A stretch of 63,485 nucleotides of DNA, the filler included, from Kipferlia bialata (lineage: Eukaryota): NCBI GenBank assembly GCA_003568945.1. It is 7 parts of 7 records of this genome, joined end to end, with 100 filler letters (N's around TTAATTAATTAA, not from the genome) between each part and the next. Parts side by side here need not be neighbours in the genome. Positions count along the whole stretch, not along the records: positions 44,999 to 57,488 come from BDIP01001078.1; 6 more parts are not named here. One strand, 5' to 3'. The translations under genes and the position numbers were made by a program. Under the pieces are notes generated by a model. The model ran no database searches and was not told where the DNA came from. It saw only the letters and a list, made by a program, of their open reading frames with translations. Below, piece after piece: positions 15,701 through 63,450 of the stretch (within the stretch, counting starts at the first letter, position 1; every line of letters begins with the position of its first letter).

Positions 15701-15860
15701 CTAACTCCCCAGATCCAGAAGTACATCAACGACCCCGAGTTCAAGCCCGAGATCATTGCCAAGAAGAGTGTGGCTGCCACCTCACTCTGTATGTGGGTAC
15801 GTGCATGTGTATCTCTATTTTCATTTGAATATATATGTACCTTTGAACCAAAGTCAGTGT

Positions 15861-15909
<49 letters not shown>

Positions 15910-20652: not shown

Positions 20653-20692
<40 letters not shown>

Positions 20693-22678: not shown

Positions 22679-22726
<48 letters not shown>

Positions 22727-25295: not shown

Positions 25296-25430
25296 GGTAC
25301 CATCATTGAGGTGGATGTGTCTGACCTAGGCCTGGTGACCCAGTCCGGCAAGGTGGTGTGGGGCAAGTACGCCCAGGTGACCAACCACCCCGACAGGGAT
25401 GGGTGCATCAACGCCATCATGCTGGTGTAG
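25296..25430 (+). CDS. NSA2: Ribosome biogenesis protein NSA2, last exon (5' partial)
   Basis: After ctcaccccag: [47 protein letters not shown], the conserved NSA2 C-terminus. Confidence 0.95.
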
Positions 25431-32651: not shown

Positions 32652-35600
32652 GTCCAGAAGGCCATCTGGGCACTGGACGATGACCAGATGTACGAGGTGT
32701 GTATATAGTATACATAGTAATTGCTTCACTATATATATAGGGAGAGAGAGAGAGGTGCCAGATGTACGAGGTAGGAGATATAGTCATATTGTAGTTTATG
32801 TAGTAGTAGTATCATTATGTATATATAGAAGTGATAGTTGTATGGGTACTGGACGATGACCACATGTATATGGTAGATAGGTGTATATGTATGCATAGAT
32901 ATAGTAGCAAGTTAAGGGTGATACACGGACACACTGGCATATGCACTGGATGCGTCCTCCAAAACCCAACCATATTCTTCCGTTTGCGGCCTCTGGGTTC
33001 TCTATCTGGTTTCCCTTACTCCTTTTCTGTCCTATGATCGCAGAGGCTTCACACTAGTACTGTGTGAATACTCTCTATTAGCCACTCTTATCCTTAGGGC
33101 AAGAAGACTCTGTCTCGGGATTACATCCCCGGAATCTATTGTTCTCCTTAATTAATCATTATCATCTCTTACAACCTTAGCCTTAGGGCATCCTATGTCA
33201 TCCTATCATTCTTTATCATCTAGTTGTAGCGACCTTAAGATAAGGCTTAACCTTAGGGCAAGAAGACCCTGCGTGGCATTGTGGCCAGCCAGGCCATTGC
33301 AAGACATGAGGTGGGACTGTATAGATAACATATATCCCAATATGTATGTTTACTGTCAGGTAAACCAAAGGCATTATTCGTGATGTATTCTATTTCTGGT
33401 GCACTCTCTGTGTACTTCAACCCGAGTGTTCGTCTGATGTGATGGAGTATCCATGACCTGGCGAATACATCTGACCCCAGGGCCTGTGTCTGTACACCCA
33501 CCTCCCCTACCTCACCCACTCCTGTGTACCAGCAGTTAAGGTAAAGGCTATACAGACACATACGTATATATACATATATGTTATATATATATATATACTC
33601 ACATCCCATACCTCACCCACTCCTGTGTACCAGCAATTATGGTATGGGCATATACATTCACATGTATATACCTATATACACACAGACATATATATATAGG
33701 GTATGGACACATAGACTCGCATGCCTCTCTGCATATACTCTTCTACTCCCCGCAGTCAAGGTATGGGTCCTGTTTATGTACTGTGTTGTGGAACAGGCAT
33801 CTCTCTGTCTCTCTCTGTGTATCTTTCTTTATATAATGACCTACTTACTAACTCCAGTCACTCTGGAACATTGGTGAAGGCCTACCCAGTGAGAGGAGGA
33901 GTGGCAAGAACGCACCGACATCCAGAGTGACAGCTGCCAGAGACGTCAAGGTATGTATATATATACATATATATACGTATATGTATATATACACACGTGC
34001 AAAGATGTATGTAGTGTATTTGTTGGTAGGATCACTGTCTATCTTTGTGTATATACATGCAGAGTGGCAGCTGCCAGAGACGTCAAGGTATACATATATA
34101 TATATACATAAATATGTATGTGTATATACCTTAGTACACGAGTGTTGTTCACACCCAGGCCGGTGAGCCCCTGACCAGGACATACCTGATAGGGGCACCC
34201 TCCATGACAAGGGCAGAGAGGTATATATATATATATATATAGTATAGACAGAGCATAGGTATATAGTTCTATAGATATATAGTTATTGTGGAGATTGGTA
34301 TGTCTTGTCTATATACCTGATAGGGGCACCCTCCATGACAAGGGCAGAGAGGTATATGGTTTACATACCCTTAACACATCGACACACATATGTGTATACT
34401 CTGCGCATATATATATCAATATATATCTATATATATCCATATATATATATCTGACCCCATAGTACCGAGTACCTGTACCGACCCATATTTATATATATAT
34501 ATATTTATATCTATCTGTCTATCTGTATGTATCTAACCCTATAGGACCGAGTACCTGTGGGAACACTACGAGTTCAAGTGCAACTGTGAGGTATGTGTAC
34601 GGCAATTATACATATATATATACATATATATATGTATACCCTATTCCAGTGCAACTGGGAGGTGTGGTCAGCATTTAGTATTAGCCTCTTACAGGCGCTC
34701 TCAAATACATGTTACATTATTTGTTACATTATATGTAATGTGTAATCTTATGTGATGATTAATATGCTACTGTTGGTATGGTGTTACCCTAAATGATACA
34801 AATTGTCACTGTGTAACCGTAGGTGTGCTCCCTAGAGGGTGATGCCCTGGTCCAGAGTGACATGAACAGGATGAGGCTCAGGGTGCTGAGGGAGGAGCTG
34901 AGGGTGAGACGATATACCATATTTGTACACTATGTATTCTTATACAGTGTATAATATACTGCTGAGGGAGGAGCTGAGGGTGAGATGATACACTATATCA
35001 TTATACATCATTCATAGATAGACCATGCGAGTGAGGAACTGAGGGTGAGATGATACACTCTATATATACACTCTGTATTCACACTCAATTTACCCGTGTA
35101 CCCTGTCAGAGACTAGCTACGGGTGAGATTGTATACTATTACTATTCTACCTGTTATGCCGTATACTCACGCTATCAGGACATAGCCTCAGAGAGGATAC
35201 TATATTATATTAGTCTCTGTCACACCATATATACATATATATATACTAAATATATATCACTCACTATGTACTATATATATATATACATATATATATACAC
35301 TCACTGTCAGGACATAGCCTCAGAGAGGCCAGGGCCTCCAGAGTGCCTATCACTGGCACTGGAGGTATGACTATTGGATCTTATACACTTATTATCAGTG
35401 CCTCGTATGTATCTTCAGATATGTGTATATCTATCTATCTGTCTATATCTATCTATACATATACTGACCTCAGGCCATTGGCATCTGTGTCACAGAGTAC
35501 AGGGCAGACCCAGCATACATGATCAGGTGGATAGAAGCGATGAATACATATATGTGTAAATGCATCAGTTGCTACACTACTGTCGTGGATGGGACTCATT

Positions 35601-37744
35601 GTATCCCATCTTCTTTCTATTATGTGTGCAATATATACTGGCCAACCCCAGAGCCTTTTGCATGTGTATGTGACTATGCATGGACACAACTCTTATTCCC
35701 ATCCATATCTCCCATATTGTCTCTCTGTGTACGAATACCAACCCCAGGGCCTTTTCCTCTGATGCTTCTCTCCCTCTGCCTATATATTTGTATGTAGATC
35801 AAAAGTGTGTTGACACGTACTAGCAAAGTGTAGTCTAGTATGTTAACACCAGAGCCTTCTCGTCTGGCTTCGAGGCTGCCTGCGTGGTTGGGGACGGGGA
35901 GTTGGCCAGAAAGATGATGTACAACATACTGGCCTCGCAGGTACATATCACTAGAGTCATATATATATTATAGGATAGTTTTTAGTGGCATAATATATGT
36001 GGTATGTACAGGAAGATGATGTACAACATACTGGCGTCACAGGTACCCAGCAACACAGTTATGTAACATTGTATTACAAATGAAATGTATTCAGAATGAT
36101 ACTGTACAACTATATGTATCCACACTATAACAATGGTAGTTGACCAGGAAAGTGATGTACAATATGCTGACATCACAGGTTTATATACACTGTATCCAGT
36201 TATAAGATACCATAATCTACATGTTTTTGTATGGAAGTCTATAGTCTCCTGACCCCTAGATGCACACCGAGGGAGGTGGACTGCCACAGCACAAGACGAT
36301 GAAGGACTGGTGCATAAACCCAAGGTAATGTCGCAGTATAATTAGATAACTATATATATACTAATATATATACGAATTCATATATATACATCAATACTTC
36401 GATATATATGCGAGGCCCATGGACTCCCTGGTTTTTGAACGCAAGGTCAGTGTGGTGACTATATAGCGACAAATACCAAGGTAGTGTCTTTTGGTCTATG
36501 CCTTGTCTCACCCCAGCATCCACCCATCCACCCATGTTGCATCCTGTCCCATGAATATGTATGTATATATATATACTATACGTATATATATGTTCAGTTC
36601 CCTGCCTCACCCCCAGCATCCACCCTGTGGCCAGGGCGTTCGGAGTGGTGGTGGAGGCCAAGGTACTATATAATATATGCTATATATACTATATGCTATA
36701 TACTATATAATATATACTATACTGTATCTACTGCACTGTATTTCTGTGGTGGTGGAGGCCAAGGTACACAGTATATATTATATATTATACAATATACAAT
36801 ATGCTATATACAATATACGATATAATATATACTATACTGTATGTACTGCACTGTATGTCTGTGGTGGTGGAGGCCAAGGTACTATATACAATAGACTATA
36901 TACTATGTAGTATATAGTATATAGTATATAGTATATATAGTATATATAGTGTATACATAATATATAATTGGTGGAGGCCAAGGTGCAGTGTATTAGCTCT
37001 CCAAGAACTAATCTTCTATTTGATACTGGCAGACTGCCATTTCTTCTCGGTACTGCTTGCCATGTCCATAGAATCACTTTCATCCTTGTACTTATCCCCA
37101 TCCCCTGCTGCCTGTTATGGCCATCAGTGCGTGATAGTAATAATATGGAGATACTCTGTACATATATACCACTGTCTATATATCAAGTTCTCGTACCTCT
37201 GATAACCCCTAGCCCCTGCTGCCCGTCATGGCCTCTGTGCGTGATGGTGAGTGGGCATCGGTGGCCGAGGAGGTGGGACTTCCCATCATTTGGGGGGACA
37301 GGTACGAAGTAGATACTTATATAGAGCTAGAGTTAGAGCTATATTGCACACAATGGATTGTCTCGAAGAGGTACAGATCACTTAGAGTATTCCTTTAACT
37401 AGGTTTTTTACGTCTTTGTTGGGAATCTACGCTATATTTTTATACTGATCCGCAGGAGTGTTCTCAAGGAGCACGAGAGGGACAGGAGGGAGAGAGTGAG
37501 GCTGGAGGAAGAGGCCAGGAAGGCAGAGGCAGCAGCCAAGAACAAGGTGCCATAGTCACATTACATTCAATACTTTTATCGTATAAGTACTATGTATGTA
37601 TATAGCGTATACCTTAGTGGAAGATGGAACGTATGTAGAGGCTATTGTATTTCATTTACACCCTAGGAGAAGATGCTGGAAAAGAGGCGGAGGAAGCTGC
37701 AGAAGAGGAAGAACAACGCCAAGAGGAGGACAGCCAAGCAGTGA
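32652..37744 (+). CDS. SET-domain protein, SMYD/SET5-like, with post-SET cysteines and a basic coiled C-terminus (5' partial)
   Basis: GLCLYTHLPYLTHSCVPAVK / RVTAARDVK|AGEPLTRTYLIGAPSMTRAER|TEYLWEHYEFKCNCE|VCSLEGDALVQSDMNRMRL matches NHSC.PN, A.RDI..GEELT.SY and F.C.C..C. Ends KRRTAKQ-TGA at 37742-37744. Confidence 0.85.
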
Positions 37745-38246
37745 CGGTTTTGCTGCTACTTGTCTAAGTCTTCAGGATGAATACTACTAGGCCTAGTCCT
37801 AGTATGCTTCTGTGTGCTAAAGTCCGTATTTGTAAATATCGCGTGTTTCACCTGCATCTGTCGTTTCCAGCATACATTGTCGTGAAACACAATCATACGA
37901 CTTTGCAGCACTTTCGAGAACACAGAGGTAGTCCCATTGATGTGGTATTGGAATCTATTGCTTCGAGGAGCACCCACACTGTTTAGATTTAGATACTGTC
38001 TGGCATAATAGCGGCTTCACTGCTTGTCACACATACTCTCACTTGTCACACAAACTCTGACACGGACTGTGTCCTCTGAATAACCTTGATCTCTCCCTCC
38101 ACGACGGGACTGTTAAGACCCTATTGTAAGAATGTGGAGAAAGAGAAACACTGCATGCTCACACGGCACCAATGGGTCTTACATAGAAGTAAAGACACAT
38201 CCATACCTAGAATCCGACTCTCCCTAAAATGCAACTGGTTACAGAG

Positions 38247-41200
38247 TTATAGAGAGGAGAGTATCCATGACACTACCTTATAGGCCGTGTGCATTGCATA
38301 TGCACCCAGGCACCCATAGCCTAGGTCGCTGAACATGACTCCCAGCCACACACCTGGGGTAAGTACATTGGTGTGTGGTCATAGACACCCAGTACGACAT
38401 ACCCACTCAGTGAACTCGTCATGGTAATGAATATGTATCAGTATCTGTGATATATAATTTAGAATGTGTACAATGTGTGTCGGAATGCACTCACCTGTCC
38501 AGTTGCCTGTCATTCCTATTAGTATCAGTGCTATCCGTAGTACACAACCTATCAGAGACAGGAAGGCACCTCGCTGGCCAACACCGGCCTGACATAAGTA
38601 TAACAATATACATATGGTAAAGAGATAGAGAATCGCACATGCTGGTGACCAAATGACAAACGAGATAGGAAACCAGATGTGGTAATACGGCAACGTACCG
38701 ATGCCAGCAGCTGTGTGCCGAAGCTCAACAGGACATACCCGGGTCTGGTGGGTGAGACAAGAACCCACATTGTGTATAAGATACTCGCGCATATATTGAC
38801 GTGACAGGTGATGTAGGTATGTTGCATTGTGGTCCTACCCACCTCATTGCATTGCCCACCCTGACTGCCGTGTTGATGTTGTCCAGGATGACGGAGTCGG
38901 AGCTGAAGAGGGAGACTGGGGGTTAGAGACACTGCAAAGCAAGACTTAGCTGCAAAATATATGGGTTGTCAGAGCTGTATAGGGACACATGGGGTGAGTA
39001 TCGGCGATATATAGATATATCTCGTATCAAAGAGATTCCTAATGCATACTTGGCATACGTATTTATTGTATATATGTACCGAATGTGTAAGGTACTGCCT
39101 CCACTAGAGGCACTAAGACATATACATCGATGTATACGTCATGGCATAGTAGGTGATTAGTGTATATAGAGCAGCAGCACATACCGAATGTGTATGGGAC
39201 TGCCTCCACCAGAGACCACAGGGGCACAAAGACAGCCAGAGCACCCAGGATGACATACTTGCCAGCCTGCTTGACTCTGTAGGTCAGATAAATAGTATAT
39301 ACACACCCATATATATGGTATGTAGAACTGCTTGAACTGTTTGAAAGTGACGACATAGAGGGACTGACATTGATGCACGACACATATTTTAGAGTCAACG
39401 CAGAAAGTCTACACAACTCACCTCTCGCTGTTGTTGGCATGGAAGGCTGCACCCAGAATAGGGACAGCAGCAGTGATGACACCTGGGGTCATGTGCCTAG
39501 ATAGAGAGAACATATAAGAATGAGATAGAGTATGTGAGAAATAGAGAGAGAGAGGTGTGATGACACCTGGGGGTTAGCCTGGTTAGAGAACGTTCCATTG
39601 ACAACACATATCGGAAGAGGAGAGAATAGGTGTATATACTGCTGTGATGACACCTGAGTGTGAGGACATGTCCCCTAGACAGAGAGAACATCAAAAGGAG
39701 ATAGAGAATGTACAAGAGTCCCCGATTAGAGATAAAGATATAGAGAACGAAAGAGAGAGATATAGAGCCGACCTGTGGACGGCAGCACCAGCATGGATGC
39801 CACCCTGTTGACCACCACTGCTATGGCTATGTGGGTGTCAGAGTCGACAGGGCCGTCCACATTGCCAATCACAACTGGGGTGAGGATGGATCAGTGCACC
39901 ACACACACTACGGGAGTATCTCTATCAGGTATTCGGTACCTATCAGCACCAGCATAGTGATCACCGTGGCCATGTTCATGACGTACAGACATACTATATT
40001 CATATTATAGACATATTGTATACATAGAAAATACCAGAAAATATATCAACGTTTTACCTATCAGCACCAGCATTGTGATCACCGTGGCCATTCCCATCAG
40101 GAGGGCAGGGCTGCCAGCCTTGGCTACGGCCTGGTGTCACAGGGGAGGGATATAAATATATATACGAATATATATGAACTTATACATGGTATTGGTCCAA
40201 TAGAGAGGGAAAGAAATTCACCTTGATCTGAGAGAACGACTGTCTGTTTGGCAGTCTCTTGGGTCTAGTGACCTGGATATCAGAGGGCTGACAGAGAGTC
40301 CTGACACAGAGAATACGTTGTAAACGCACAGACACAGCTGGCCACTTGAAATCATTGGGGTATGGTATTTACCAAGTACCTTGACGATGGGTATGACGCC
40401 TATGATTGATGCCAGAAGGAAGGTGAGACCGTAGGAGAGGGGAGGGCCCATAATGCCTGGGATGATAAGGGGATTGAGTGCAGAATATACATATATATTC
40501 ACATGTACATACATATATATAAACATTGATGGATATATATCATAGGAGAGGGCCCATGATGCCTGGGGGGGTAAGGGGATTGAGGGCAGTATATGCACAC
40601 ACATATATATATATATATATAGATACTGATAGATATACATCATAAGAGAGGGGAGGGCCCATGATGCCTGGGGTAAGGTGGAAGAGTAATTGGAAGGTAT
40701 AGTCACAGTGGGTCCGTAGTATATATGTATATCTCCATAGTTTACTTTGCTCCTATGAGATAGAGATTTTGAGTAACTATCTATACAGATACTTTCTCAG
40801 ACAAACCAGTAACAGAATCGATCCCAACCAGTAAGACTAACTCGTAGTGTACACACATAGACATATAGAGTGTACATACCCATGTCCAAGACAGGCCCTG
40901 CCACCCAGCAGAGTACTACCATCAGCATGGCAGAGACCACAGACACTAGTAGAGACAGGGCCTAACGTGAGTGTATATGTATCCACACTTTCAAAGAGAG
41001 TAGCAGATAGTTTGCTGAGTTGGATCTACCTGGTACCCCATCGATCTCAGCAGTGACGTGACCAGCGTGTAGCTGCCAAACCCTATGGGGCCAGCCAGAC
41101 AGAGGGTCATGGCATATGGGCGCATATCAGTACCACTTGATGTGAGAGAGTGATAACTAAGACCAACTGTTCAAATGCTAAGGGACCTGAATCATGTGGT

Positions 41201-44200
41201 CTAGGCAAACGCATAGAAAGAAGTGAACAGCACTTACCCCTCTGTAAATATGAGGCTCCCTGCTGTCCCGATGAGTGTCAGGGCAGCTACAGTTATAAGT
41301 GCAGTCGCTATGCTGATGGTCAGTATACTAAGTAACGTAAAACGAAGACACTACCCAGTAGAATATTCTACGCGGCCACCTGCTCCACAGTCCCTGTCTT
41401 ACTCTCTTCTAAAAGGAAACTACACGATATATATTACTACGCGGTTACCTGCTCCAGAGTGCCTGTCTGACTCTGTTCTGTGTCCCAGCTGTGATGGCCT
41501 GGCCCATGATGGTGCCACTGCCCCTGGAATAAGGGGGAGAGAGAGAGAGAGAGACAGACAGATAGAGAGAGAGAGAGTCACCTGCTAGGCAGCTGTGACA
41601 CTGCCATTATCAATGACCCCAGTGGAGATAGGGTACCCGCCACAGTGAGGGAGTTGCCACCTAGGAGACCTGGGGGTGAGGGTACAACAACTAAGCCCAA
41701 CTAGTTCAAGAGGATTGAATACTGAATCTCCAAGAAGTAGACTCCTGGAAAACTCATTTAGCAATCAGAACGCGGAAGTATACCTACTACAATGATACGT
41801 ATAATGAGGAGTGAACTATTGTATTTGTATTGTGAGACACCCACCTAGGAAGTAGAGCTCTATCAAGGGTATCACTGACACACACAGGAGTGCAATGCAG
41901 TTGGGGGCTGCGTATCTGACAAAGAGGCTGAACAGGGGGGCAGAGCCATAGGCATCGTGCTGGATGGAGACCTAGAGTGTTAGAGGCACTAGGCTAGTAC
42001 CACAAACTATTAGAATTATGAGATGTACATACTTGAATATTTGTAAGAGTAGATATAGAGTACATACCTTGCTGTGAGGTGGACTCTTGTCCGAGGCAGG
42101 TGACACAGCATCCAGCCTGTCCTCCTCCTCGATGGTCTCCATGCACTCCCTCTCTCTCTCTCTCTCCATGATCTGTCGCACGGTCTTGAGATCGGCAGAC
42201 GCAGGGTAGCTGAGCGGTGAGAGGGTGTAATGCAACGAACTAACTCTACAACAATTATGTACATGATGGCAGCACGGAAGTGTGTATGGGGTGCGGCGAA
42301 CATATACATCAATATCTATAGTATGGCGATACATACCTGTACATTGATGACTCTAGGGGAATAGAGAATACATATACTAATATTGTGTAGCTACCTGTAC
42401 ATAGATGACTCTGACCCCTCTCCACTGCTACCACTGGTCTGTCTCTCATCTACCAGCATGGCAGCGAGGTCGGGGGGGACTGGTGTCAATTTATACACCA
42501 CACGATATATGTATATATAAATACATATGTACAAATTTAATACAGATTAAGAAAGTGTGTATATATCATGGCAGCTAGGTCAGGAGGGACTGCGGTAAGG
42601 TGTCTAAGTTACACGTGAGTAGCCCCATATGTAAGTGTTATGCGGGGTACTGTACATAGATATCATAGTCATTCATGCTCACTGTAAGCATGGTTGCTGA
42701 GGAGATTGTGATACAAGGACGCCAGATCTCTCCACCCACCTCTGTACTTGAATGGGTCATCCCCCCTGAGGTGTGTGGAGGTGGGCAGGGTGGACTCCTC
42801 GCCCTCGCCTGGGGTCAGAGTAGACGTCAGAATACATCCTTATATGATACAGAGTGAGAGATAGTATATGAGGAGAGGACAGAACGAGTACCTGGCTCGT
42901 ATATGGATGCCGACTCGAGCACAGACTCAGGCGCCACAGACTTCTGGGGGTGAGAGGGAGAGAGAGAGAGAAGTGTAGATAGTATTATTCAGTTAGTGTA
43001 ACACTCACCCTCCCGCCACCAGGTGGTGTGGGTCCACATGGTCCCCCAGGAGATATGCACTGGGGAAGGGTGTCGGTGCAGGCAGGTTGCTAGGGTCAGA
43101 GAGAGTAAAGCAGGGGTATGAAATACACAGTAGGTAGAGGTATGGAAGGTATTCTAGTATCATGATGAGGGCGTAGCAAAATGAACAGAGAGAGAGAGAC
43201 AGGCTCCTATGCTAAAGCCATATTGTGTTGTTGTGAACGTGGATAAGAAAGGCGTCTGCATATATATATATATATACATATATGGAGAGACAGAGAAAAG
43301 GAGACAGAGAGAGATATAGTAGTAGTAGTATAGATAGTGTCACCCACCCTGACCCCTGTTGGCACTCCCACCGGTGACTTGGCAGAGACAGACCCAGACC
43401 AGTCAGGTCGCTGAGGGTAAGGAGTAATGAGATATGTGTATATGATATGAGTACATATATATATAGACAGGTACACATATGACTGTGCCATGTGAAGAGT
43501 CGGTTCGCTGGGGGTAAGGTGTGTGTGTATAATGTATATATGATATATATGTAGATAGGTATTTACATGGTTATATATATACAATTATCAATCAGGTCGC
43601 TGGGGGGTGAGATGAATGCGCATGATGTATATATATATATATATATATACATATAGAAAGACTAAGACAGATACATACACACATGCACTCACCCGTTGTG
43701 GTCCACCTGGTACATAGCTATGATATATACTATATACACTATACACAGTGAGGTATGTGAATATATGAACACACTATGTCACTCACTCGTTGTATATACA
43801 CTATACACAGTGAGGAATAGAGGAACACACATGCACTTACCCGTTGTGGTCCACCTGGTGACGCATATACTATATGGCATAATAAGTATAAGCCATATAG
43901 ACATGTATACAGAAGATGTACTTAGTGTATCATCCAATCGTAGGCATATATACATGTGATGCACTCACCCGCTGTGGTCCACCCGGTGACACACTCTGGG
44001 GGACACTGGTAGGGTAAGAGAGAAGAAAGAGAGAAAGTATAGACAAATCAAAGACTCAGGGGGACAGTCCTGTGAGTAATAAGGGATTGTGGGCATACAT
44101 GATTATCATATTAAGAAGTACATATGGGAGATGGATACAACATACCCCAGGTTGTATGGATTCTCTGGTATCCTGACTCTCTCTCTCTCCCTCCCTTCTC

Positions 44201-44998: not shown

Positions 44999-45004
44999 GG
45001 GGGG

Positions 45005-45053
<49 letters not shown>

Positions 45054-45092
45054 ACCAGTATAAACACTGATCACACTATGTGTGATACATAC

Positions 45093-45604
45093 CTGTGTGG
45101 CATTTCTGACTCTGACACTGGGCAAGGGGTCAGGCCTAGAATCAGTATCATCAGACTATACCAGATCATACATATATATATGAATACATGTACCTAGGTG
45201 CTGGCAGGGGGTGTAAGGTGACAACACACTCACTGTCATCAAAGGCATTGGCGTAAGAGTGACTCTCTCTCTCCCTCTCAGCCTTGACAGTGCTAGAGGC
45301 CCTACTCCCTCCCTTCCCCTTGGTCTTCCTGGGTCTCTTGGTGCTAGTGTACACCACCACTGGTTCCTCAGCCTCCTCGCTGCTCTCACACACAGACACC
45401 TCGTCCTCAGACGCCTCTAGGTCACTGATCTGAATATCAATGATTATATGTATGTATACACTATGCTATATATATGTGTGTGTCACTGACCTGGAAGGAT
45501 GCCTCATCTCCCTCTCTCTCCCTCTCCCTCTCCTCAGACGACTCCTCTGCCGCGTTGAGGGCAAGCTTGGGCTGTCTGCACCTACGCTTGGCACGTGGGG
45601 CCAT
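45093..45604 (-). CDS. First exons of an acidic/basic low-complexity hypothetical protein (3' partial)
   Basis: MAPRAKRRCRQPKLALNAAEESSEERERE...SFQ|ISDLEASEDEVSVCESSEE...KRPRKTKGK...|SDDTDSRPDPLPSVRVRNATQ| with canonical introns. Confidence 0.6.
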
Positions 45605-45723
45605 ATTGTGCTAGACCCACACACTTGAAAGAGGGTATGGATTATCGAAGCATATCAGTGTGGTTAAAGGGGTTGGCATTAGATTAAGCTTTGTGTCTCC
45701 CTGCGTTTGAGTGTCCAACCAAG

Positions 45724-48700
45724 TCACCCCCCAACCACCCAATATCCAAGCGTGAAGACAACTACCCATCCCACCCTTCTGAGGTATGAATTATAACTGT
45801 AAGACTGTAGGAATGTGTACACATATAGATTCCTAAACCTAATCCCAACAAGCAATTGCAACTCTCCTATGTCTATTAGACCCTGCTCCTCACTTGAATA
45901 CAATACCCACGATAAAAAACCAACAATACATTGGTGGGTAGGTGAAGAGTCCGGATCAAGGAAGAGATAAAGGTCGCTAGTTAGAACCCTGTTCTGACCA
46001 GTGTAAACTGGTCTTGGGAGGAATGGACTACGGAACATGACACTGGAGGTTAGTACTGGAGTCGCTATCTAAAAAGAAATACTCCATGCATACTTATATG
46101 TGCACAACATAGTCAACATACACACCTATCGAACAGCACTGTGACACAGCACCGAGAAAGTCCCTCCTATGCTCCTCTCTCTCTCTCTTTAGTGTCGGCA
46201 CGTCACCAGCAGTGGGGAAAGGGACATTCCTCCTACTCCTTTGCAGCTCTGCCTCCTCAGATAGCGACATGTCACAGACATTTGTCACACAGCCTCGGGG
46301 CAGCTGGTTCAGTATGCATAGAGAGCCAGTGCACTGTCTAAGGGAGAGGTGGGATATGGAGGCAAGTCTTGATGCCGCAACCTGGGAGAGGGGGCCTGGG
46401 GTGAGGATAGTCAGGTCATACTCTATTTACATAATTTCATATGATAGTATACCTAGTGTGGATCTGTCTAGACTGAGTATCGATAGGATTAACTGATACA
46501 TTATATATATATATCATACCTAAAGTTGACCCGTCTAGACTGAGCAGGTTCAGGCTAAGAGGTGGTAGTCCTAGGTTGGGTGTGGGTGGGACTGGCAGAG
46601 AGGTGTTGCCCTTCTTCCTCAGTGCCACCCCATGTAGGACCAGCTCTGACAGGGAGGGGGGGATACCCGCTAAGAGGCTGGGGTTAGGGGGTGTATATAG
46701 TGTTTACAATGCACTATAAGATCAGCATCAGAAGCCGCTGAGAGGCTGGGGTTTGGGGTCTATACCTATAGCCGTATATGTATAAACAGTGTCCTACCTG
46801 CAGACATCCCCCATGTCGAGTTGACAGTCAAACATAGAGATATAGGCATATATAGATATATAGAGAGTGGTATAAGTATAAAAATGCACACCTGCTGACA
46901 TCCCCCATGTCGAGTTGGCAGTCTGACACCTCCAGTCTCTGAAGACAGTCAGGCAGTACACAGGGACTAGGGGGGTTAGAGAGTTGGAGGGGGGAGTATA
47001 TGAAATCAAGATAATGAGTAACTATGGTATCAGTAGAGAGTATACCTCACTGATATGCCGCATCTAGACACCTCCAGACTACCCACATTGTCTGACTGCA
47101 CCCTTTGCCAGAAGACACTGTCTAGCCTGAGAGATCAGAACACACACACATATAGATATATAGAACAGAGAGAGAGAGAGGCACATAGAGGGAGTATATT
47201 TAGTGTCTGACTGCACCCTCTGCCAGAAGGTGTTCATCCTGAGAGTAAGGGTCAGTGTATATAAATATGTGTGTGGGTGTGTGTGTCTGCATATATATAG
47301 AGAGAGAACCTCTACATACCTTATGGTCCTGCCTGACAGGAACATATGGACAGTGGGCACAGAGTATATACATATATATGTACAAAAATATACATATAGG
47401 AAGAGAGAGAGAGTATTCATTTATTCAGAATGCATATAAACAGTATCTATCTAGCACCTTATGGCCCTGCCTGTCAGGCACAGGTGAACAGTGGGCACGG
47501 ACCGGCTCTTGACTGCCCTTGGGCTCTGGCCCAGGGGATGCACACCCACTCTGCTACCACTGCGGCCTGATGGTTAATGTATGTATATATACATATGTGT
47601 ATCTATATAGGTTAATGACAGTAGAGGGATACCTGTCACGTATGGAGATCTCTCTGCCAGCCGTGTGTATGGGTTCCCCCCCGTCTTATTGTAACACCCA
47701 GGGATAGGGGGTACCGCCAATGCCCCACGTCCAGGGGAGCCATAACACGAGGCAGACCTCTTGACAGGTTTGGTCTTGCCAGAAGTAGTAGAGGTAGTAG
47801 TAGTAGTAGGACCCCCTGTCCTAACAGTAGTAGTCTGGGGGGTCTGTACGGGTTGGACACTGCTAGCTGGTACACCAGTACCAACAGCATTAGCACCAGT
47901 AGCAACACCAGTAATAGTACTGGGATTGGCAATGCCACTAGGACCACCATACACCCTTCCCGGTGTACCCTGCATAGCCGCCCTCCTAGTCCTCGGTGAC
48001 CGTATCTGTGGCTCCCTCATCCCATTCTCGTGGGATATGGCAGCTATCACCTCCTGGGCAGTCATGCTCCCAAAGTCAGGCTGACCCTCTCTCTCCCCCT
48101 CACTAATGGGGTCATGCACTGCAGGTCCAGCCCCGTGTCTCTCCACTCTATCCAGATAGTCATCACCATGGGTCAGTCTGGGGGGAAGTACCCGAGGGGG
48201 GGAGCCCTTCCTCACAGGCTGTGCAACCACGTCAGTGACCCCATACAGACCATGTCCCGGGGTGGTGGGTACATAGGGGGTGTACACGTTGGGGGTGGGT
48301 TGCTGCTGGGGTACCGGCTGGGGCTGGGCATAGCTAGTAGGCTGGGGTACTAGCTCTGTGGGGTGTGGCATCAGGGTGGAGGGATCGTACTGTTGCTGCT
48401 GATGCATGTATATAGGGGGTGTGCCCTGGGGCATAGGTGGCATCTGCTGATGCTGCATTGGGGGTATATGCTGCTGGTGCTGCTGTTCCACTGGGGGCAT
48501 ATGCTGCTGGTGCTGCTGGTGTTGTTGCTGTTCCATTGGAGGTATCTGCTGCTGCAGTTGCATTGAGGGTAGATGCTGGTGCTGGTGCTGGTGTGTCTGC
48601 ATAGATGCTACAGGTGCCTGTCCCATATCCATGTGCGTGGGGGAATGCACTGGTACTGACTGATGGTGGTACAGACCCTGGGGGTGACCAGGGTACTCAG

Positions 48701-51700
48701 GTGGGGACATTGCCATGGGCTGTTGTTGGGGCTAGAGTCAGTACATGTGGAGATGGGAATAGTAAACAATACATATATATACAATACACAACTATATATA
48801 TATATATACTATATACCTCTTGTTGCATGTGTGACTCATTGACATGTGACTGATTGACAGCAGGTGGCTGGGGTTGAGGCTGTGCATAAGGAGGGTGCAC
48901 CTGCTGACCGTACTGCTGCTGCTGACAAAACTGCTGCTGTTGTTGTTGCTGATGGTGTGGATGTTGTGGCTGCTGCTGCCCATAGATACAAGGAGCACCG
49001 AACTGCCCCGCATGCTGTTGGACATACCCCATATCATGTCCCACAGCCTGACCCATACCCTGCCCCTGCACAGGTTCTCTCTGTGTCTCTGGCAGTGTCT
49101 GTGTCTGCCACATACGCTGATACTGGTCAGGCCCCTCAACAGAGGACACTGATGGATAGTCGCCAAACTGCACACTGTCTGCAGAATTGCGGATAGGAGA
49201 GGCCGATACAACCATGTCCATATCACCACCACCAGCCATGGGTGACTGATTGAGTGGCAGTGCCCTGTCTCCACTACCACTGCCAAATAGCCCAGAGGTG
49301 TCGGTACCAGCTGCATGAGGGTATAGATGGGTGGTGGAGACTGCCTTGCGAGGGTCAGTAAGGACAGGAAGGGATCCCCCAAACATACCCCTCTTGGCAG
49401 GTGGAGAATGGACACCAGACAGCGTGTGCTCTAACCCTACAGGGCCCTGGTTCTGAGGCACAGTCTCTCTCTCTCTCACTCCTACTCCCACTCCCTCACC
49501 CTGCCCCTCTGTCCCCACCCCCTCATAGTCTGAGTCTACCATCTCGTACACACCCTCTCCCTCTCCCTCTCTCTCTCCCTGTGTAGTGAACCCTCCACTT
49601 GGCTCGGGATCACTGAGGACACAGTTGACATGTCCCTCTGACACTTCCTCACTCACTCTGATAGGTATGGTAGACTCGGTGCCTCTCTGTCTAGCCTCTT
49701 GGTCATATATAGATCTAGGGATATCCCTCCTAGGTGGGGACTGGAACACAGGAATCACACCCTGGAAGTTGGGCAATGCACATGCCCTTCTTGAAGGGCT
49801 ACCCTGGTGTCTGGGGGTACCATCTACATGGGTCACCTTAGAGACTGATTCTCCTTCCCCACTCCCTCTACCACTGGGTCCCTCATCCCTGGCACTGTCC
49901 CTCTGAGGTGACTGTACAGGTGATGCCACTGACATGGACATTGACATTGACACTGCGGATCCCTGGATCTTTCTAAGAGCTCTCGCCTCTCTCCTCTTGC
50001 GACGCTGACTGCGTCTCTCCTCCTTGAGTGCTCTCTTCGCAGCTCTCTCTCTCTTCCGCCTCTGCTTGTCGGTCTCTGGAGAGTCTCCACTGCTAACCTT
50101 GCGCTTACGGATAGATGGAGAGGCAGAGGCAGGCACATGAGTGGCACTAGCATCCCCCTCGGCCAGTGGAGACGCCATACCTGAGGGGAGGGAGGAGGTG
50201 ACCTTCTTGGCGGGTCCCTCTCCCTCTCTCTCTCTCTCTTGTGCTCTCTCCATGAACCATGAGTCAGGGGCAGTGTCAGCCTTACCGACAGCAGTACCAC
50301 CGTCAACTGCAATGGGACCTGCATCTGTTCTTCCAGTGGCAGTGGGAGTATCAACCGGGGTATCCTCCTCCCCAACAGACCTGCCCTCTGTCGCATCCAC
50401 ACTCGCCACTCCACCAAGACGCTCCAGCCTACTAGCCCTGTTGAGCCACGGGTGTGGCATGGGGTAGCACCTATAAGCAGATGCCTGTGACTGCTGCGTG
50501 AGGGATGCCATGGAAGAGGGGGAGGGGGAGACAGACCGGGAGTGGACAGATTCTGTAGGGCTAGTTGACTGCTCTACATCACATATAGATACAGTCTCCA
50601 TCCCTGCGGGAGTAGTGACAGGTGAGGGAATGGCAGGCACCACCCTCCGTACAGTGATAGTGGGTGTGGCATCTAGACTCGACTGTCTAGAGGATACAGT
50701 GGATGAGAGAACACCTACTCTCACCCCACCAGACTCAGTGAGGTGATTGACAGGTTCAGTAGCGGCAGTAGGGGTGTGGAGGGGTGTCACACTAGGTGTG
50801 GCTACAGGAGTGATTGCTGACTGCAATAGTGGGGTCTGCTCACTCTCAGAGGGCTCTGTCTGAAAGGGTATGGCAGGAGTGGAACACTCTGTGGCAGCAT
50901 CTACATCCCTCTCGACAAGGGGTGTAGGACAGGTCTGGACCTGGCCCATGTCTACATCTTGGGTAGACTCGGCCTCTACCTCTGCCTCTCTCTCTCTTGA
51001 TGTCTCCCTCTCATCTCCATCCACCCCTATATCACCCCACAGCTCCTGGGTGGTCTGTGGGATTGGCTGAGTAGTCTCCCTCTCCCCCTCTCCCTCTGCC
51101 TCTGTCTCTTCCTCCTCACTTGACTGGGTTTCTATCACCCTAGACGCCTTCAGACCAGGACTTGGACTTGGGCTAGGGCTAGGGCTAGGACAAGGTTCAG
51201 TATCCATACCCATATCCATATCCATGGGAATGTCTGGAATCTCCTCAGTATTAGCAACATTAACACCCGCAGTCCCCACCCTTGCATCCGCCTGAGGTCT
51301 TGGGACTTTGGGTGTCTCAGACCCTCTCACACTCACTCTCTTCTCTGGCAGAGCCATAGTGCCATTACCCATACACACAGGAGGTGATGAGGGGGTGGGT
51401 GAGGTTGCAGAAGCTGGCAACTCAATCCGTGGCACCCTGTGATTGGTCCTCTCCTTCCTCACTGTCACCCCAGTCTGTCTGATGTCTATCAGGGTGTAAC
51501 GGAACCCAAAGGAGAGCTTGGGGAGATCCTTTCTGAACATGAGGCGGAGTATATATTTGCACAGTGTGCAATGCACACACATATACATATATAAATATAT
51601 ATATATATGGCCTGCTAGCAATATCTCTCCCATACTATCCATACCTGTTGACCCTGATCTCGTAGACCCTCATATATATCTATATCTATATGTATATATC

Positions 51701-54700
51701 CTGACAATGAGATGGGTATTCAAATTAATCCATACATGGCCGATGAACATATACTACACAACCCACCTGTTGACTCTGATCTCATAGACCCTGCCCACCA
51801 GATACTCGGGTGACATGTTGGATAGGGTACAGACAGGAGCAGCCAAGCTAAGGAGGGCCCCCATTGGTTGGAGGTGGTTCAGTCTAATTGTGAGAGGTAT
51901 ATCACATATTCATATACGTTACAGAGACACAAAATTGATATTAGCGAGTGGTTATTGTAGGAATTTGTATTCCTTTACCTCCTCAGAATCTGCTGACCCT
52001 CCCTCCACCTCTCAGGATGTGACTGACTCAGAAGAGTAAGCCACCCCTCCTGACTAGACTGACTGATAGATGCATCTGCACCAGGTGCTGACAGACAGCA
52101 TGCATGCTCAACATCTGATCTGATGCACCTGGCTGTGAGTGATGATAATACGATATGATACACAAGGCGAGGAAACAGCCTGATGTATAAACAATATCTC
52201 ACTGATGTGTCTACCTGAGAGCATGGTACCACCAGTTGGTATCTGCGTCCACATCCACCTCCTCTCCCCCTCTCTGCATCAACAGACTCCTCAGTGATGG
52301 GACAATGTCATCAGCCTCACTCACTGTGTGCAGTCGCTCCAGCTGGGACAGGGAGTCTGAGTATACACTGGAGGTGAGGCTCAGAGTGCGGTCATCTAGA
52401 AGCTAGATTCCCTACATACTCTGTTAGAAAGGGACATATAGGATCATTGCATTCACTAGTACAAACTGTAACCATTCATACCTGAAGACATCTCTGTACT
52501 CCACCTTTAGGAGTCCTATCCCCTGCCCATTGCTGTCTAATGGGGTTACACCATCAGTGTGTGATACCCTACTGTACAGAGGCACCCCAGCATCAGCATC
52601 TTCACACATGCTTGTCAGGTACTGTCTGGCCAGCATCGAGTGTCTGACTGCCAGAAGCGCATTGTCTAGAGAGCCCTCCTGGGGTGGGTACACGGGTATA
52701 CAGAGAAGGGGTATGTGATGATATTTAGCGTCAGAACTGTGGCATACCATCTTTCTGTGGTTTGCATCGAGCTTTGTGATGAAGTGCTCTACTGCGAGTG
52801 TCCCCCTATCCACCGCCAGATTAAGCAGTGCCTTACAGTACACACTCTCATCCGCTAGGGCCTTTCCAAAGCGACCCGGTCTAAAGGGGCTAGCGGGGGT
52901 TATAAGGCCACACATGGTGTCAAGCTGATGGTAAGACGGAATAAGAGAGGATTCTATGACATAAAAGAACTATCCCATTTGTCTTGCTCTGAGATACATC
53001 TCCAGATTATAGTATTTGAATCACATCCATATCCCACCTTCTTGACTGTGTCTGGTCCAAGTCTGTCTCTATCTGCCCCAATGTGCCTTACGGTCAGAGT
53101 ATACAGTTTAGAGAGTTAAGAAGGTAGATATGCAAGCATCAGAGACGCAAGATCTTCATGTAGTGTCGTACCTGAGCATGACGCCCAGCTCTGCTATCCA
53201 GGCACACACACCGACTAGCCTCAGGGACAGAGAGTAGGCTGTGTCTATGTGGTCCTTGTCTAGCTGATGGTTACTAGAAGAATAGTATATAGTATATAGT
53301 ATAGCATGTATGGAGAGAGAGTGAAAGCGAGACACCTATATGTGTACTTACGGACAAAGTGAATATATGTTACGTTACTATGTGGAAACCCACCTCCGTG
53401 TCTGATACCACAACCATCCCAGGTCCTAGCACCCTGTCCAGTATAGGTATGGCCCTGGTCACTACAGTGTCTAGGTGGAACAGGACCTGGTTGTGAGATC
53501 ATGAGTGGTGTGTTAGTGAGTATTATGAATACGTTGTATGTACAGAACAGAAGGGAGCAACAGAGAGAATATGAGGGAGAGAGAGACATTGTGCGGCACC
53601 TTCAAGGTCTCCGGGTACCCTCCCTCCAGGTGCCCCAGATCCATATCATCCAGCTGGTTAAATGCTGCCTCGACAGCATCCAGGGAGAGAGAGAGAGACA
53701 TGGTGGAGTCTGGGGTGGGGACACGGGCAGTCATCCTCTGACACTTCCTGGGGGGGTAAGGGGGAGATGAGTTGAGAAGATATATATCTATCTACACCTA
53801 TATACATATATACCAAACTCACCTCGACGTCTCCTCCAGAGTATCCACTGTCTCCTCAGACTCTGTCCCTATACTGGTACCACCCCCAGTCCAGGACAGG
53901 GCAGAGCACTCTCTAAGGGTGCGTCTGGCAGTGGAGTAGCTAGGGTTAGGATGTAGATCTACAAATAGATGATACTGATGAGTGATATACATATAGATAT
54001 GTATATATCTCATATACTCAAGTAGGAGGGTGCGTCTGGCAGTGGAGTAGCTGGGGTAAGGATACATAAGATATACAATGTATACACACATATATATACA
54101 TACCTCCCCATCTGTAACTGACACCTCGCACACGCTAATAGAGAGTGGCCCCTCTCCTCAGTGGGGGTGGACTGGGGGTGAGATGCATGCTAATACAATA
54201 CTGTATACACAACGCATATATATATGTGTGTGTGGTATGTATATAGTAACACACATATATATGACTCGGTGGGGGTGGACTGGGGGTGAGAAAAATGCAC
54301 TCCTATGTATATACATATGAATATACATACACATGGCACCCTACCTCCCAGGATGCCATCTGCCTATAGCGCTTGGCAGCCCTCGCATAGCACCCTGCCT
54401 CTCTGAGTGACACGGCATAGAGGGTGGTCAGCTCTAGACGGTAGTCTGGGGGTCAGGACAGAATGAGTTAATACCTAAGGTATCATTTCCCTCCATCATA
54501 CTCTAAAAACCAGAATCTAAATACAAATGCATTATAATGGTGTGTAAACAAGAATATTCTCACCCTCCATCATCCTCTTCCTCTCCTTGGCATGTGCTCT
54601 GTCTCTCTCCCTCAGACCTGTGTCAGAAGTGGTAGAGACTGATACTGATAGTGATGCTGCTACTTTAACAGATACATAAACTCATACAGATACTAATACT

Positions 54701-57220
54701 GACACTGACCTGGCATGGCATGTGTATGGTTGACCATAGCGTCACTGAGGGTGGTCAGATAGGAGTCTGGGGTTAGACACTACATATGCACTAACATGAT
54801 AACACCTGTCCCTATTGGTAGTAGGACAGAAGTCAAGGGGTCACACAGCACATTCATACATACTATGATCCAAGATATATCCAACATTACCTAGTTCCCC
54901 CCATGCCTGTGTCTCGTGTCCCATTAGTAGTCTCAACTTGACCCCAGCCACACGGAGGTCAGGGCGGGAGACCTAGGCGTCACAAATATGAAACAGTATA
55001 TCTGAAAGGAAACATTGATGATAAATTCACAAGTTATTCAATAAGATGTATCCAGTAATCGACCATTACCCATCCGTACCTTTGGTGACTTGAGCCCCAT
55101 GGACTCGGACACCCTGGGGTGAGGGGACATTATGAAGTCATAATATACTATGCACTATATATACACATATATAGTGAAGTGATGCACTCGGACACCCTGG
55201 GGTGAGAACACTAGATACAGGCAGAATAATACAATACGACACACTGGACACTTGCTTTGTCAGTATGTCTATATTACTACACTAATCCCACCTAGTATGT
55301 CCTATCTGCAATAGGTATGGGGCAGGGAACGGTACAGACCCAGGGGCCCTCTCAGTGTATGACTCATAGAGAGAAGAGACCAGTCTAACAGTGCCCCTGC
55401 TGTACTGGCCCTGGGAGGCATGGGGTGAGTTAGAGATGTATAGGTATATGAAGTATACATCTAGATAGAAAATGGATACTGTATACACATTAATAAACAT
55501 ATGTACATATACCCCTGCTGTACTGGCCCTGAGAGGCATGGGGTTAGATGGAGATAGTATATGGATACCAATAAGGTATGTATGATCGTATGGCCAATCC
55601 TTGGATGGAAAGATTACTCTTATTGATACTGGCAACCAATCAGCACATCACAACATACCTTTGGTATCCCAGAGTACACACCGCCTGACAGCACAGTCAC
55701 ATGCAGCAGTCTGAAGCACTCCTGGGGGTGAGCGTTAATGATATAAGTATGAATATATATATATATATTTGCTGATGAGTATATAGCTTGTATATATCCA
55801 TTCACCTGATAGAGGTACATGGCACACTCCGCATTGCCTATCTGCATCGGTCTATAACTATATAGATATAGTATAGGTATATCTATATACATATACACCT
55901 ACCTGATAGAGGTACATGGCACACTCTGCACTAGCTATATACATGGGCGTATAACCATATAGTATAGATAGGTATATATATATATATATACCCCCACCTG
56001 ATACAAGTACATGGCACACTCTGCATTGCCAATCTGCATGAAGGTGTCTGCACAGTTGATGAGGGCAGTCATGGTGCCTGGGAGTTAGAATTGGTAGTTA
56101 GATATCGTTGTTCAGATAATGAACAGATGTAGAGGGGATATATGTACAGACAGAGTATCCGCACAGTTGATGAGGGCAGTCATGGTGCTTTGAGTTAGAC
56201 AGATTAGACAGATAGAGTAGAAATGGGAGAAACAAGGGGTGGGGGGGAGAGAGTCATTCATAGTTGCCAGGTGTGGTCCAGGCCCCATATCTATATCGAG
56301 GATATCACATACCTTTCCTTGTGTAGGACGTGGTCTCTGCCGTATTGGAACACCTGTGGGTGAGACAAATAAATAGGTGAAAGTCTGAAAGTATAACAGA
56401 GTATACAATACACATGAATTCAACAATCTAGTGGAGCAAAATTTACTGAGATATCCTGTGTTGTATAGAGCATACGCATACTGATACTGACCACTCCCGC
56501 TATTTATATATACACATATATCGTTGTATAGAGCATACCCACATCTGGTATATATATAACTCCAATCCTGAAGTCCTTGGGTGATGGATATAATACCAAG
56601 ATACTATATTAAGTATACCTCTGCTATACATGAATATTTGAGTACTCATATACATATAATGTCACTATACCTCAGGTCCATTGAGTACACTCATATACAT
56701 ATTCATATATAAATATATACCTCAGGTCCATCGAGTGGAAGTCCAGGGCCTGACCCAATACATACCTCATATTCCATGTATATACATGCAATATTCCATA
56801 TAGTATATATATATCACCATACCTCAGGTCCATCGAGTGGAAGTCCAGGGCCTGACTCAATACATACCTCATATTCCATGTATATATATGCAGTATTCCA
56901 TATAGTATATATACATCACTATACCTCAGGTCCATCGAGTGGAAGTCTAGGGCTCTAACAGCGTTGTCTCTATCCTGCCACAGCCTAGGTGAGTGGGGTG
57001 CACATTCGCATATATGTATACAATAGTGTATATATAGGTCCTGATACCGCATGACATTGCGAAAGTCTGGTACACTGAGTAGCATTAGTCATGCCTAAAC
57101 AAGTTCATATATACTCCTATACACATCCACAGGGTTTATACCAATATACCACACCTTGCAATGGCATTGAGACAGTCTGCAGCATTGTCGTATCGGTGCT
57201 GATCTAGAAACCCAACGACC
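45724..57220 (-). CDS. Very large hypothetical protein: many-exon helical N-terminal part, two long disordered S/T/P/Q-rich exons (about 48816-51531 and 47632-48732), and a short possibly LRR-like C-terminus
   Basis: In-frame joins ...GQQILR|RLNHLQPMGALLSLAAPVC...YEIRVNR|KDLPKLSFG... link the small upstream exons to the 981-aa ORF, and ...MQQE|PQQQPMAMSPPE links to the 380-aa ORF. C-terminal LSELVLHGV and ISHLSLRQC are LRR-like. The 5' end is uncertain. Confidence 0.6.
56669..56955 (-). repeat. Tandem 102-bp units, each an exon end + donor + intron piece
   Basis: acctcaggtccatcgagtggaagtc at 56719, 56821 and 56923 (period 102), plus a decayed copy at 56669. Confidence 0.95.
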
Positions 57221-60710: not shown

Positions 60711-62844
60711 GAGAGAGCAGTGTCCATGTCCTCAGAGACCTGGGGGTGAGGTATGGAATAGACTTATATAGAGAGAAAATACAAAATAGCAATATACTAC
60801 AGACCTCGGCCACAACAACCTCCTCCTGATCCTCCTCCCTCTCTCTCTCTCTCTTTCTCTATACACATATATATATGTGTATATACGTATACCTGACTTC
60901 ATACCTTCTCCTCCTGAGCAATATGCTCCTGCTGCCTCTCTCTTTCTCTCTCTCTGTATACACAAAATAGTATATATATGCATACCTCCTCCTCCTGAGC
61001 ATTCTGCTCCTCCTGCTGCCTCAGAAGCTCCACCTCCTAACAGTGAGAACAATGAGAACAATAGACTTCCATTGACTGAAATTTAGATTCAAATACTATT
61101 GCTATATTGATATTGACCCAAATATCTATATACATTCATATGAAGAATGAAATAATTAGTACATGTATATGTGCTCTGTACCTCAGGTGGGATTGTGTCA
61201 GGGGCAGTCTCATCCTGGGGTGAAATATATATATATACGAACCATAATTTATATCTATATATATACATACATATAAATGATGAATATTATAAGTGTCTGG
61301 GGCAGTCTCATCCTGGTGTGAAAGGGTGTAGGGAGGGACATAATATACACCTGAGATAGTCCCATGACAATACAGGAAACAATATTGAATAATAATTGGT
61401 GGTTCTATCGCAATTTGAACATATGTGTAATGCATTAGTAAAACGGTAATTGTGTACATAATAGTACCTCAGTCTCGATTGGCAGTGCCTCTCCCTCCTC
61501 CTCCTTGGGGACATCAGCAGCCTCCCTAGAGTGAGTGTGGCATGCCACACACAATTCAGAGTGTATGCCAAAGCCATGTCACGCACAATTGAGAGAGTAT
61601 TTGTATGGATGTGTACCTGGGGTAGTGCATGAGCAGGTTGGTCACGATGGCAGAGGAGAGTCCGAAGAGCTCGGAGAGGACAGACACGGAGAGAGAGCCG
61701 TTGGGGCCGCCGCCTACAGTAAGACATGACAAATACAGGGAGGGGAGACAGAGAGAGAGAGAGAGAGAGTACCTAGCATGGGGTGGTCTGGGTCGAACTC
61801 CTCGGCCTCTCTCTCCTTGTCTCCCTCTCCCTCTGCTGCGGCTAGGGCATCCTGGGAGCGGCGGTGCTTGCTGGGATGAGCCATACTACAATACACATAC
61901 ATATACATATACACAAGACAGATACAATATCCTCTCGTCCTGGGAGCGGCGGTGCTTGCTGGAATAAGCAAGGGATACCCACACAGGGAAATAATATATA
62001 CACACACATATACATACCCTTAGTTATGCGAACCCACAATATCCAAAGAGTAATACTACAATCATCAAGAATATTTGTATACCTCAGCACCAGCCCCCTG
62101 GCCATCCTGAACAGTTGGGCACTAATATGTAACCATATAATAATATATATGTAGGTATAATTGTATATCTATATTAGTATACAATTGTATACCTGAGCAC
62201 CAGCCCCCTGCCCATCCTGAAGAGGTGTGCACTAATATATATATACATACACATATACATATACAGATATCTATCTATATATACATATATATATATATAT
62301 ATATACCTTAGGACTAATCCCCTGGCCATCCTGAAGAGCTGTGCACTAATATACATAACCATATATATACAGATGTCTATCAATATATACATATATATAT
62401 ATATATATACCTTAGAACTAATCCCCTGGCCATCCTGAACAGCTGGGCACTACAATCTATAACCATATATATACACACACATATATTAATATATATATTC
62501 ATATATTTACAGAATTACACACCTGAGCACCAGCCCCCTGGCCATCCTGAACAGCTGTGCACTGCAGGCCTGGCCACTCCTGGAGATGGGGTAGTCGCGC
62601 TGGGGTGAGATAGAGAGTATATATATGTAACTACAATATGTACTATACATATAGAAGCGGGCATAGTGGCAGGGAGCCGAGTTTACGCAAGCACATGTAC
62701 TTGTATATACCTTGTGTAGGTTGAGGAATGGTGACACTGGGCACAGGGCACACATATAGATATAATAATACTATAAAACTACTAATACATATATATCATA
62801 TGTATACACTATATATATATATATATATATACACCTTGTGTAGC

Positions 62845-62890
<46 letters not shown>

Positions 62891-63450
62891 GTGTAGGTCC
62901 AGGAATGGTGACACTGGGCACAGGGCACACAGGTGGGCACGCTCAAAGGCTCCAATGGGGTCATCACCTGCACAGGTTAGAAGACGAATACACACATATA
63001 TACATACACTAATATACATGTATATATATATACACTAATATACATGTATATATATATACATGATATCAGCAAGGCTCCAATGGGGTCATCACCTGCACAC
63101 ATTAGAAGACGAATGCATACATATATAAATATATACTAATATACATGTATATATACTAGGAAGGCCCCAATGAGGTCATCACCTGCACAGGTTAGAATAT
63201 GTGTGGCTGTTACGATATATATACATACATATACTCGAACACACACATTCTCTCACATTCTCTCTCTTTCTCTTTCTCTGTCTCTTTACATATCACCACC
63301 GATCCTACATATGTGCACCACCTCTGGGTACTGAGCCACCCTCCCCCCCCCCTCTCTCTCTATATATAAATACACTTTGAATCATATAGGCATATATATA
63401 TACCACCAATCCTACATATGTGCACCACCTCTGGGTACTGAGCCACCCTC
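60711..63450 (-). CDS. Internal exons of a hypothetical protein (both ends partial)
   Basis: GDDPIGAFERAHLCALCPVSPFLDLHK|RDYPISRSGQACSAQLFRMARGLVLR| and further GT-AG-bounded exons. Confidence 0.55.
62081..62563 (-). repeat. Five tandem copies (period about 110 bp) of the SAQLFRMARGLVLR exon end plus GT donor
   Basis: Donors on the minus strand at 62081, 62191, 62305, 62409 and 62521. Confidence 0.95.

Follow-up and report, generated by a model that had tools for sequence, protein, structure and literature searches.

Skipped half-exon copies in Kipferlia bialata introns carry a signature of protein-level selection

Spliced-out intronic DNA should lack protein-level purifying selection, yet in a window of Kipferlia bialata DNA (the whole stretch analysed here, 63,485 nucleotides, consisting of seven contigs joined by N spacers) more than one in four of the introns studied shows such selection. 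Twelve gene models contain 75 half-exon echoes, located in 48 of 169 modelled introns, which differ from their exons by 107 silent and 53 amino-acid-changing mismatches (67% silent), or 94:52 when shared events are counted once. The silent bias, taken with uniform silent divergence and the apparently mosaic spellings of one array, indicates that the echoes were protein-coding until recently. We consider it probable, and by no means certain, that the echoes are tandem duplicates joining silently diverged alleles through unequal inter-homolog recombination or repair, the half-exons being ignored.

Echoes were detected by codon-blind alignment of each exon to both flanking introns, with a score threshold of 26 that was passed by 4 of 1394 unrelated exon-intron pairs. 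This gave 78 matches, from which three lying 47-99 nt from any exon end were dropped. Model support is uneven: the host gene of the focal exon rests on RNA joints and the dynein heavy chain gene on Pfam and P0001, while the other ten are ab initio models with hand-curated open frames. A gene at 44999-47800 was excluded as unreliable, and one boundary of the gene at 32199 is misplaced, touching no echo. Ab initio gene finding is misled by echoes. Nearly every echo keeps one splice site, and both orientations, upstream and downstream, are present: of the ungapped echoes, 39 of 42 downstream copies have kept GT and 27 of 30 upstream copies AG. No complete duplicate with both splice sites occurs among the 78 matches or the 75 echoes. 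Echo density is patchy, with none in the 24 introns of the first contig (1-12522) compared with 48 in 145 elsewhere (P=0.0003), and introns with echoes have a median length of 238 nt versus 97 nt.

Table 1. Coordinates of the focal locus and of selected echoed genes and arrays.
Feature	Coordinates	Strand	Evidence or remark
Host gene, part inside the window (21 exons, 670 codons, open frame)	51975-57219	-	RNA joints, open frame
Functional exon, 80 nt, AG..GT (G-TMTALINCADTFMQIGNAECAMYLYQ)	56077-55998	-	RNA contig X2, open frame
Far downstream echo, final 42 exon nt + GT donor	55847-55806	-	skipped in RNA contig
Middle downstream echo, 28 donor-side nt intact + GT	55944-55903 (intact part 55930-55903)	-	alignment
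Two head-to-tail units, 95 + 97 nt	55806-55997	-	each ~54 nt intron start + 42 nt exon end
Upstream echo, initial 35 exon nt, 3 silent changes	56188-56154	-	skipped in RNA contig
Intron-like spacer, upstream echo to true acceptor	56078-56153	-	
Three downstream echoes of exon 56984-56925 (CTA/CTG twice, TCG/TCA)	56671-56851	-	host gene, skipped
Dynein heavy chain gene, 15 echoes in 12/59 introns	12716-24266	+	Pfam; 1636/1638 residues identical to P0001
Dynein echo examples	12883-12934; 19492-19527	+	alignment
Four-echo array of exon 62599-62523, apparently mosaic silent spellings	62083-62454	-	gene model ab initio

Several models have features of their own. In the dynein gene, 16119-16188 is likely a GC-AG intron within the interval 16061-16188 (+), and P0001 lacks 17 residues of the modelled exon 16061-16118. 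The model at 32652-37744 (+) contains 15 echoes and two short exons without a Pfam match; its THSC and CNCE motifs presumably recall SMYD-type SET methyltransferases. The model at 38046-41971 (-) is a multi-pass membrane protein, transporter-like by eye, whose echoes are strongly silent-biased (16:4). We take 25296-25430 (+) to be the final exon of a gene with likeness to that for ribosome biogenesis protein NSA2. An intron-free frame of 787 codons at 9933-12296 (+) has an HNDIH motif at its start that we assume to be kinase-like, and 61-1008 is a coding tandem repeat of ~30 codons with the NDISQMSEYPPG motif on the minus strand. Some additional echoes, short or outside the models, were seen by eye and left uncounted at 63092-63183 (-), 54270-54290 and 55188-55196 (-); the latter two lie in the host gene and are also skipped by the RNA contig.

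Third codon positions hold 112 of the 160 mismatches. A duplicate made on the same chromosome is dead from birth and is thus expected to decay neutrally, in which case the silent bias would have to be a detection effect. Such an origin would account for the head-to-tail anatomy, which is that of known internal duplications (PMC4974935), and local alignment does conceal decayed parts such as 55944-55930. However, the neutral expectation is 24-31% silent, and neutral simulations passed through the same codon-blind detector gave silent fractions of 0.24-0.27 with a maximum of 0.38. A conservative recount that adds all ungapped tails and the decayed head is still 57% silent (125:96, P about 4e-15). 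The tally is 30:5 for the two genes with external support and 64:47 for the remaining genes, a contrast that sorts genes by model support and not by constraint; between dynein and the other genes (21:5 vs 73:47, unique events) the difference in constraint is not significant (P=0.07). Unless most frames are wrong, neutral decay is refuted at window level, and we regard it as a highly improbable explanation. The proposal in a preliminary description of this DNA that silent respelling at one exon is unlikely to be neutral decay is borne out window-wide (107:53, P about 1e-20 or less).

Silent divergence (pS) is ~0.21 and amino-acid divergence (pN) ~0.03, so that silent sites have changed at ~7 times the amino-acid rate (pN/pS 0.15-0.22). 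In the 12 units of 56 that align best, a selection that biases the value low, the duplicated intron halves are 0.17 apart, which is close to pS. pS is homogeneous across echoes: its dispersion of 1.08-1.18 compares with 0.70-1.40 under a constant model, borders the low end of the range given by exponential ages (1.20-2.64) and is far from a half-identical model (2.15-3.38). pS per echo is uncorrelated with amino-acid changes (rho 0.01), and retained splice dinucleotides are changed in 6 of 72 cases, about the pN rate. Both stops found are at echo edges. Once edge mismatches are set aside, amino-acid changes show no gradient with distance from the splice site (P=0.58), and they are not clearly conservative (BLOSUM -0.17 vs -0.53, n=29). 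Codon preference is symmetric, with 38 changes to commoner and 54 to rarer codons, which implies change on both branches and does not separate the models. These rates are what the copy of another working allele would give, since silent and intron sites would have diverged between alleles and amino acids would have changed only after retirement.

The preliminary description had singled out one exon, echoed on both sides, for a two-step leucine recoding. All of the sequence it described at 55804..56190 is present, and the echoes are well above chance (scores 46-64). The far downstream echo differs from the exon by four silent changes (ATT/ATA, GCA/GCG and the two steps of TTG/CTC) and by no amino-acid change. 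The upstream echo is respelled GCA/GCG, GAC/GAT and ACC/ACT, and its acceptor is broken in register (..CTCAAA/G vs ..CTCCCAG/G in the exon, the slash marking the boundary). Together these two echoes give seven silent and no amino-acid changes (P about 1e-4). What had been called a second shorter echo near 55902 exists but is not simply shorter, as its 95-nt unit and the 97-nt unit of the far echo can be aligned over their whole length, the intron half showing 8 mismatches and 2 gaps; the middle echo is a full-length copy. Its donor-side 28 nt have TTG/CTC as their sole change, making it CTC like the far echo and GCA like the exon, whereas its distal 15 coding nt hold five amino-acid-changing differences where the far sister copy has none; with this head added, the tally for the exon becomes 7:5 (P=0.014). 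The downstream unit scores z=7.0 against other introns, and the spacer behind the upstream echo resembles the stretch preceding that echo only at background level (z=0.2). The TTG/CTC change is common to both downstream echoes and thus counts as one event. Neutral decay does not account for it, as had been argued, but nothing special is needed either: two silent steps in copies that still coded suffice. Leucine codons have also changed by two steps at 59939 (where the hit is poorly anchored), in the tail at 59739 and within the 62599 array, and the focal exon is little special among the echoed exons of the window.

The earlier suggestion that the flanking echoes are one split alternative exon finds no support: two-sided exons are at chance level and the RNA contig skips all three echoes. 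Seven of 135 internal exons are echoed on both sides, where chance within genes predicts 7.1. That the two halves come within 4 nt of each other in at least one of the seven is itself at chance level (P=0.66). The halves do not overlap in any of the seven cases (P=0.06), a weak hint.

The host gene contains eight echoes, all in its 5' two thirds, and its 3' third has none. No match was obtained for one exon compared with a protein collection, five with Pfam, two with PDB and one with the Atlas; the gene may have a likeness to TRAPPC8. A contig from run X2, taken as spliced RNA from its CT..AC joints (the kind of run is itself guessed), joins 55658-55724, 56001-56076, 56312-56351 and 56923-56983 as adjacent pieces with no differences. 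It covers the focal exon at 56001-56076, contiguous with the flanking exons, and skips both downstream echoes as well as the upstream echo, which the 56076-56312 joint leaves out. A further joint removes 571 nt containing the three echoes of exon 56984-56925. The echoes of this gene are therefore removed within old introns, and the contig shows no new intron between copies. With respect to duplicate-exon transcripts, this single RNA contig shows the central exon only, and such contigs drop rare forms. Elsewhere in the gene, 55420-55658 (-) is an RNA-supported GT..AT intron with its acceptor CAT directly behind a branch-point-like motif; an in-frame CAG 9 nt further on is unused, and an upstream echo at 55537 retains the CAT. 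At 47500-51979 (-), a 4272-nt RNA contig has 2095 extra letters past its last matching piece in the host gene, possibly running into the next gene.

The species is reported to be diploid by k-mer peaks (PMC5874029), and differences that are silent only look allele-like, so an assembly in which two haplotypes or a paralog had been stitched in tandem could yield such a pattern. Misassembly at 55804..56190 is contradicted at the k-mer level by a 7193-nt DNA contig from run X1, which matches 54110-56746 without a difference and at a depth like that of its neighbours; the junction words should therefore be in the reads, although X1 is possibly the source sample and hence not an independent individual. 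The closest dynein paralog found is 72% identical, far from the echoes, and arrays of three to four echoes with differing spelling cannot stem from two haplotypes. An artefact is accordingly very unlikely. The preliminary description was right to suspect another haplotype behind the echo spellings, but the search gave neither an alternative exon nor a second allele. At 80% likeness, the DNA and RNA contigs passing the record filter, which in one comparison discarded the main DNA contig, hold no other copy over the host gene, and two metagenome scans gave no other K. bialata strain. The allelic origin is therefore inferred, and the alleles would have to be gone from the culture or hidden.

The duplicated unit consists of an intron portion and an exon end, arranged head to tail around one splice site, and measures 58-177 nt (median 101). 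Matches terminate within 4 nt of the exon boundary in 69 of 78 cases. Descent from mutually exclusive duplicate exons, once complete, that diverged at silent sites while in use and recently lost one splice site would explain the silent divergence without alleles, and the spacers do approximate short whole introns in length (median near 67 nt, with 51 nt for the shortest clean intron). However, none of the 75 echoes has both splice sites, and given that pS is ~7 times pN, complete copies should outnumber broken ones. Spacers moreover match the intron on their own side in 20 of 56 cases (z>2) but the one on the opposite side in only 6 of 52, and all but one of 71 distal breakpoints are sharp. 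Remnants of complete exons are thus an improbable source. Only 1 of 56 spacers is below 38 nt, where 43% would be expected.

The broken ends carry no donor or acceptor signal, and of 37 echo ends none scores as high as the 5th percentile of real acceptors. AG ends at echo boundaries (27/31 vs 133/169, P=0.24) and GT starts (5/25 vs 42/169, P=0.62) are not enriched. Recursive splicing by an AG/GT ratchet was considered and rejected, as echo boundaries are neither enriched for the AG/GT junction nor acceptor-like. Echo donors score slightly below real donors (P=0.006), whereas echo acceptors do not (P=0.36), which points to exon definition or the AT-rich spacer as the probable reason why echoes are skipped.

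The five copies of the 62599 array show six four-gamete site pairs among five informative sites, to which recurrent mutation could contribute. Informative sites exist in one of five arrays with four or more rows, and the other four have none. This array also contains three-state silent sites, which require more than two alleles or later mutation. A live coding reserve, in which recombination, single-strand annealing or another splicing route returns echoes to frame while selection persists, would be equally expected to produce silent bias and mosaics. Echo-versus-echo differences are likewise silent-biased (23:15), gaps occur in only 3 of 75 echoes while the adjacent intron halves are heavily changed, and the lineage is without Ku-type end joining. 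On the other hand, frequent exchange should erase silent differences unless alleles supply them, which leads back to an allelic origin; the RNA contig shows no echo use, the broken ends lack splice signals, and 53 amino-acid changes, two edge stops and six broken splice sites indicate decay. We therefore judge a live reserve to be unlikely. The related idea that introns store half-exons of other alleles genome-wide, recombined into frame often enough for protein-level selection, we regard as doubtful.

In the allelic explanation that we prefer, homologous chromosomes would have borne alleles ~20% apart at silent and intron sites. A misaligned crossover, or a one-ended strand invasion closed by polymerase-theta end joining, would fuse the intron part of one allele to the mid-exon of the other. 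Copies with both splice sites or with less than ~40 nt of intron-like spacer would be purged as splicing-disruptive, half-exons being ignored; the spacer floor would thus be explained by an argument from selection. Later misaligned exchanges could re-expand and remix arrays, and each echo would afterwards decay neutrally, by ~3% per site to date. TTG/CTC would then be two ordinary silent steps between alleles while both versions coded, and the decayed head of the middle focal echo would call for a later exchange or replacement. This explanation fits the reported diploidy of K. bialata and its gene list in PMC8516963, which has PolQ, Spo11 and four copies of Dmc1 but lacks Ku70.

If the allelic explanation is true, silent diversity and past recombination become readable from a single assembly. 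If alleles are archived and cycled back, one genome would be a readable archive of the alleles of a species, and exchange, through sex or hybridisation, would have taken place in a free-living fornicate between lineages whose silent sites differ by ~20%. Sex is an open question in this group, as discussed for Giardia (PMC12669663). Per 60 kb, the echoes also provide dozens of natural experiments in which a splice site is duplicated. The spliceosome, reported as reduced (87 of 174 proteins, PMC6679479), passes over acceptors upstream and donors downstream that are equally strong, so that exon definition can be tested against intron definition in a metamonad.

In full-text searches of openly accessible literature, we found no description of this density, of the two orientations or of a selection signature in skipped copies. 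The main text of the genome paper makes no mention of duplication, heterozygosity or alternative splicing. Gao and Lynch are said to have described internal tandem duplication across the exon-intron boundary in 2009. In potato RdRp, such a duplication provided a cryptic donor in the copy and created a new intron (PMC4974935, Ma et al. 2016). The echoes resemble internal tandem duplications in being direct head-to-tail repeats that span a single splice site and a portion of an exon, and in copying the intron half as well, to judge from the spacers that match the same-side intron. Unlike in potato RdRp, the Kipferlia copy remains inside the old intron and no new intron is spliced; echoes are moreover spread over 48 of 169 introns in two orientations and bear a purifying-selection signature despite being skipped. 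In contrast to a plain unused duplicate, they are not neutrally decayed (pN/pS 0.15-0.22). Tandem exon duplication can also give rise to mutually exclusive exons (for example PMC7969005 and 10.1101/2025.08.16.670673). Kipferlia shares with these the neighbouring copies, the conserved peptide and the silent differences, but no copy has both splice sites and none is in the RNA contig.

Tandem duplications and templated insertions made by polymerase theta usually take sister or nearby DNA as template, which leaves identical copies. The echoes are likewise short tandem duplicates with sharp non-homologous junctions, in a species for which PolQ is listed and Ku70 is absent, but their copies differ as alleles would. 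Neisseria pilS and Borrelia vls are silent partial cassettes for gene conversion that diversify one surface protein. As in those systems, untranslated partial copies sit beside a working copy and apparently form mosaic variants; unlike them, the Kipferlia echoes preserve the peptide and sit in housekeeping genes such as dynein. The anatomy, internal tandem duplication across a splice site, is thus already known, whereas the literature searched gave no precedent for its frequency here, its occurrence on either side of the exon or the mark of selection on skipped copies.
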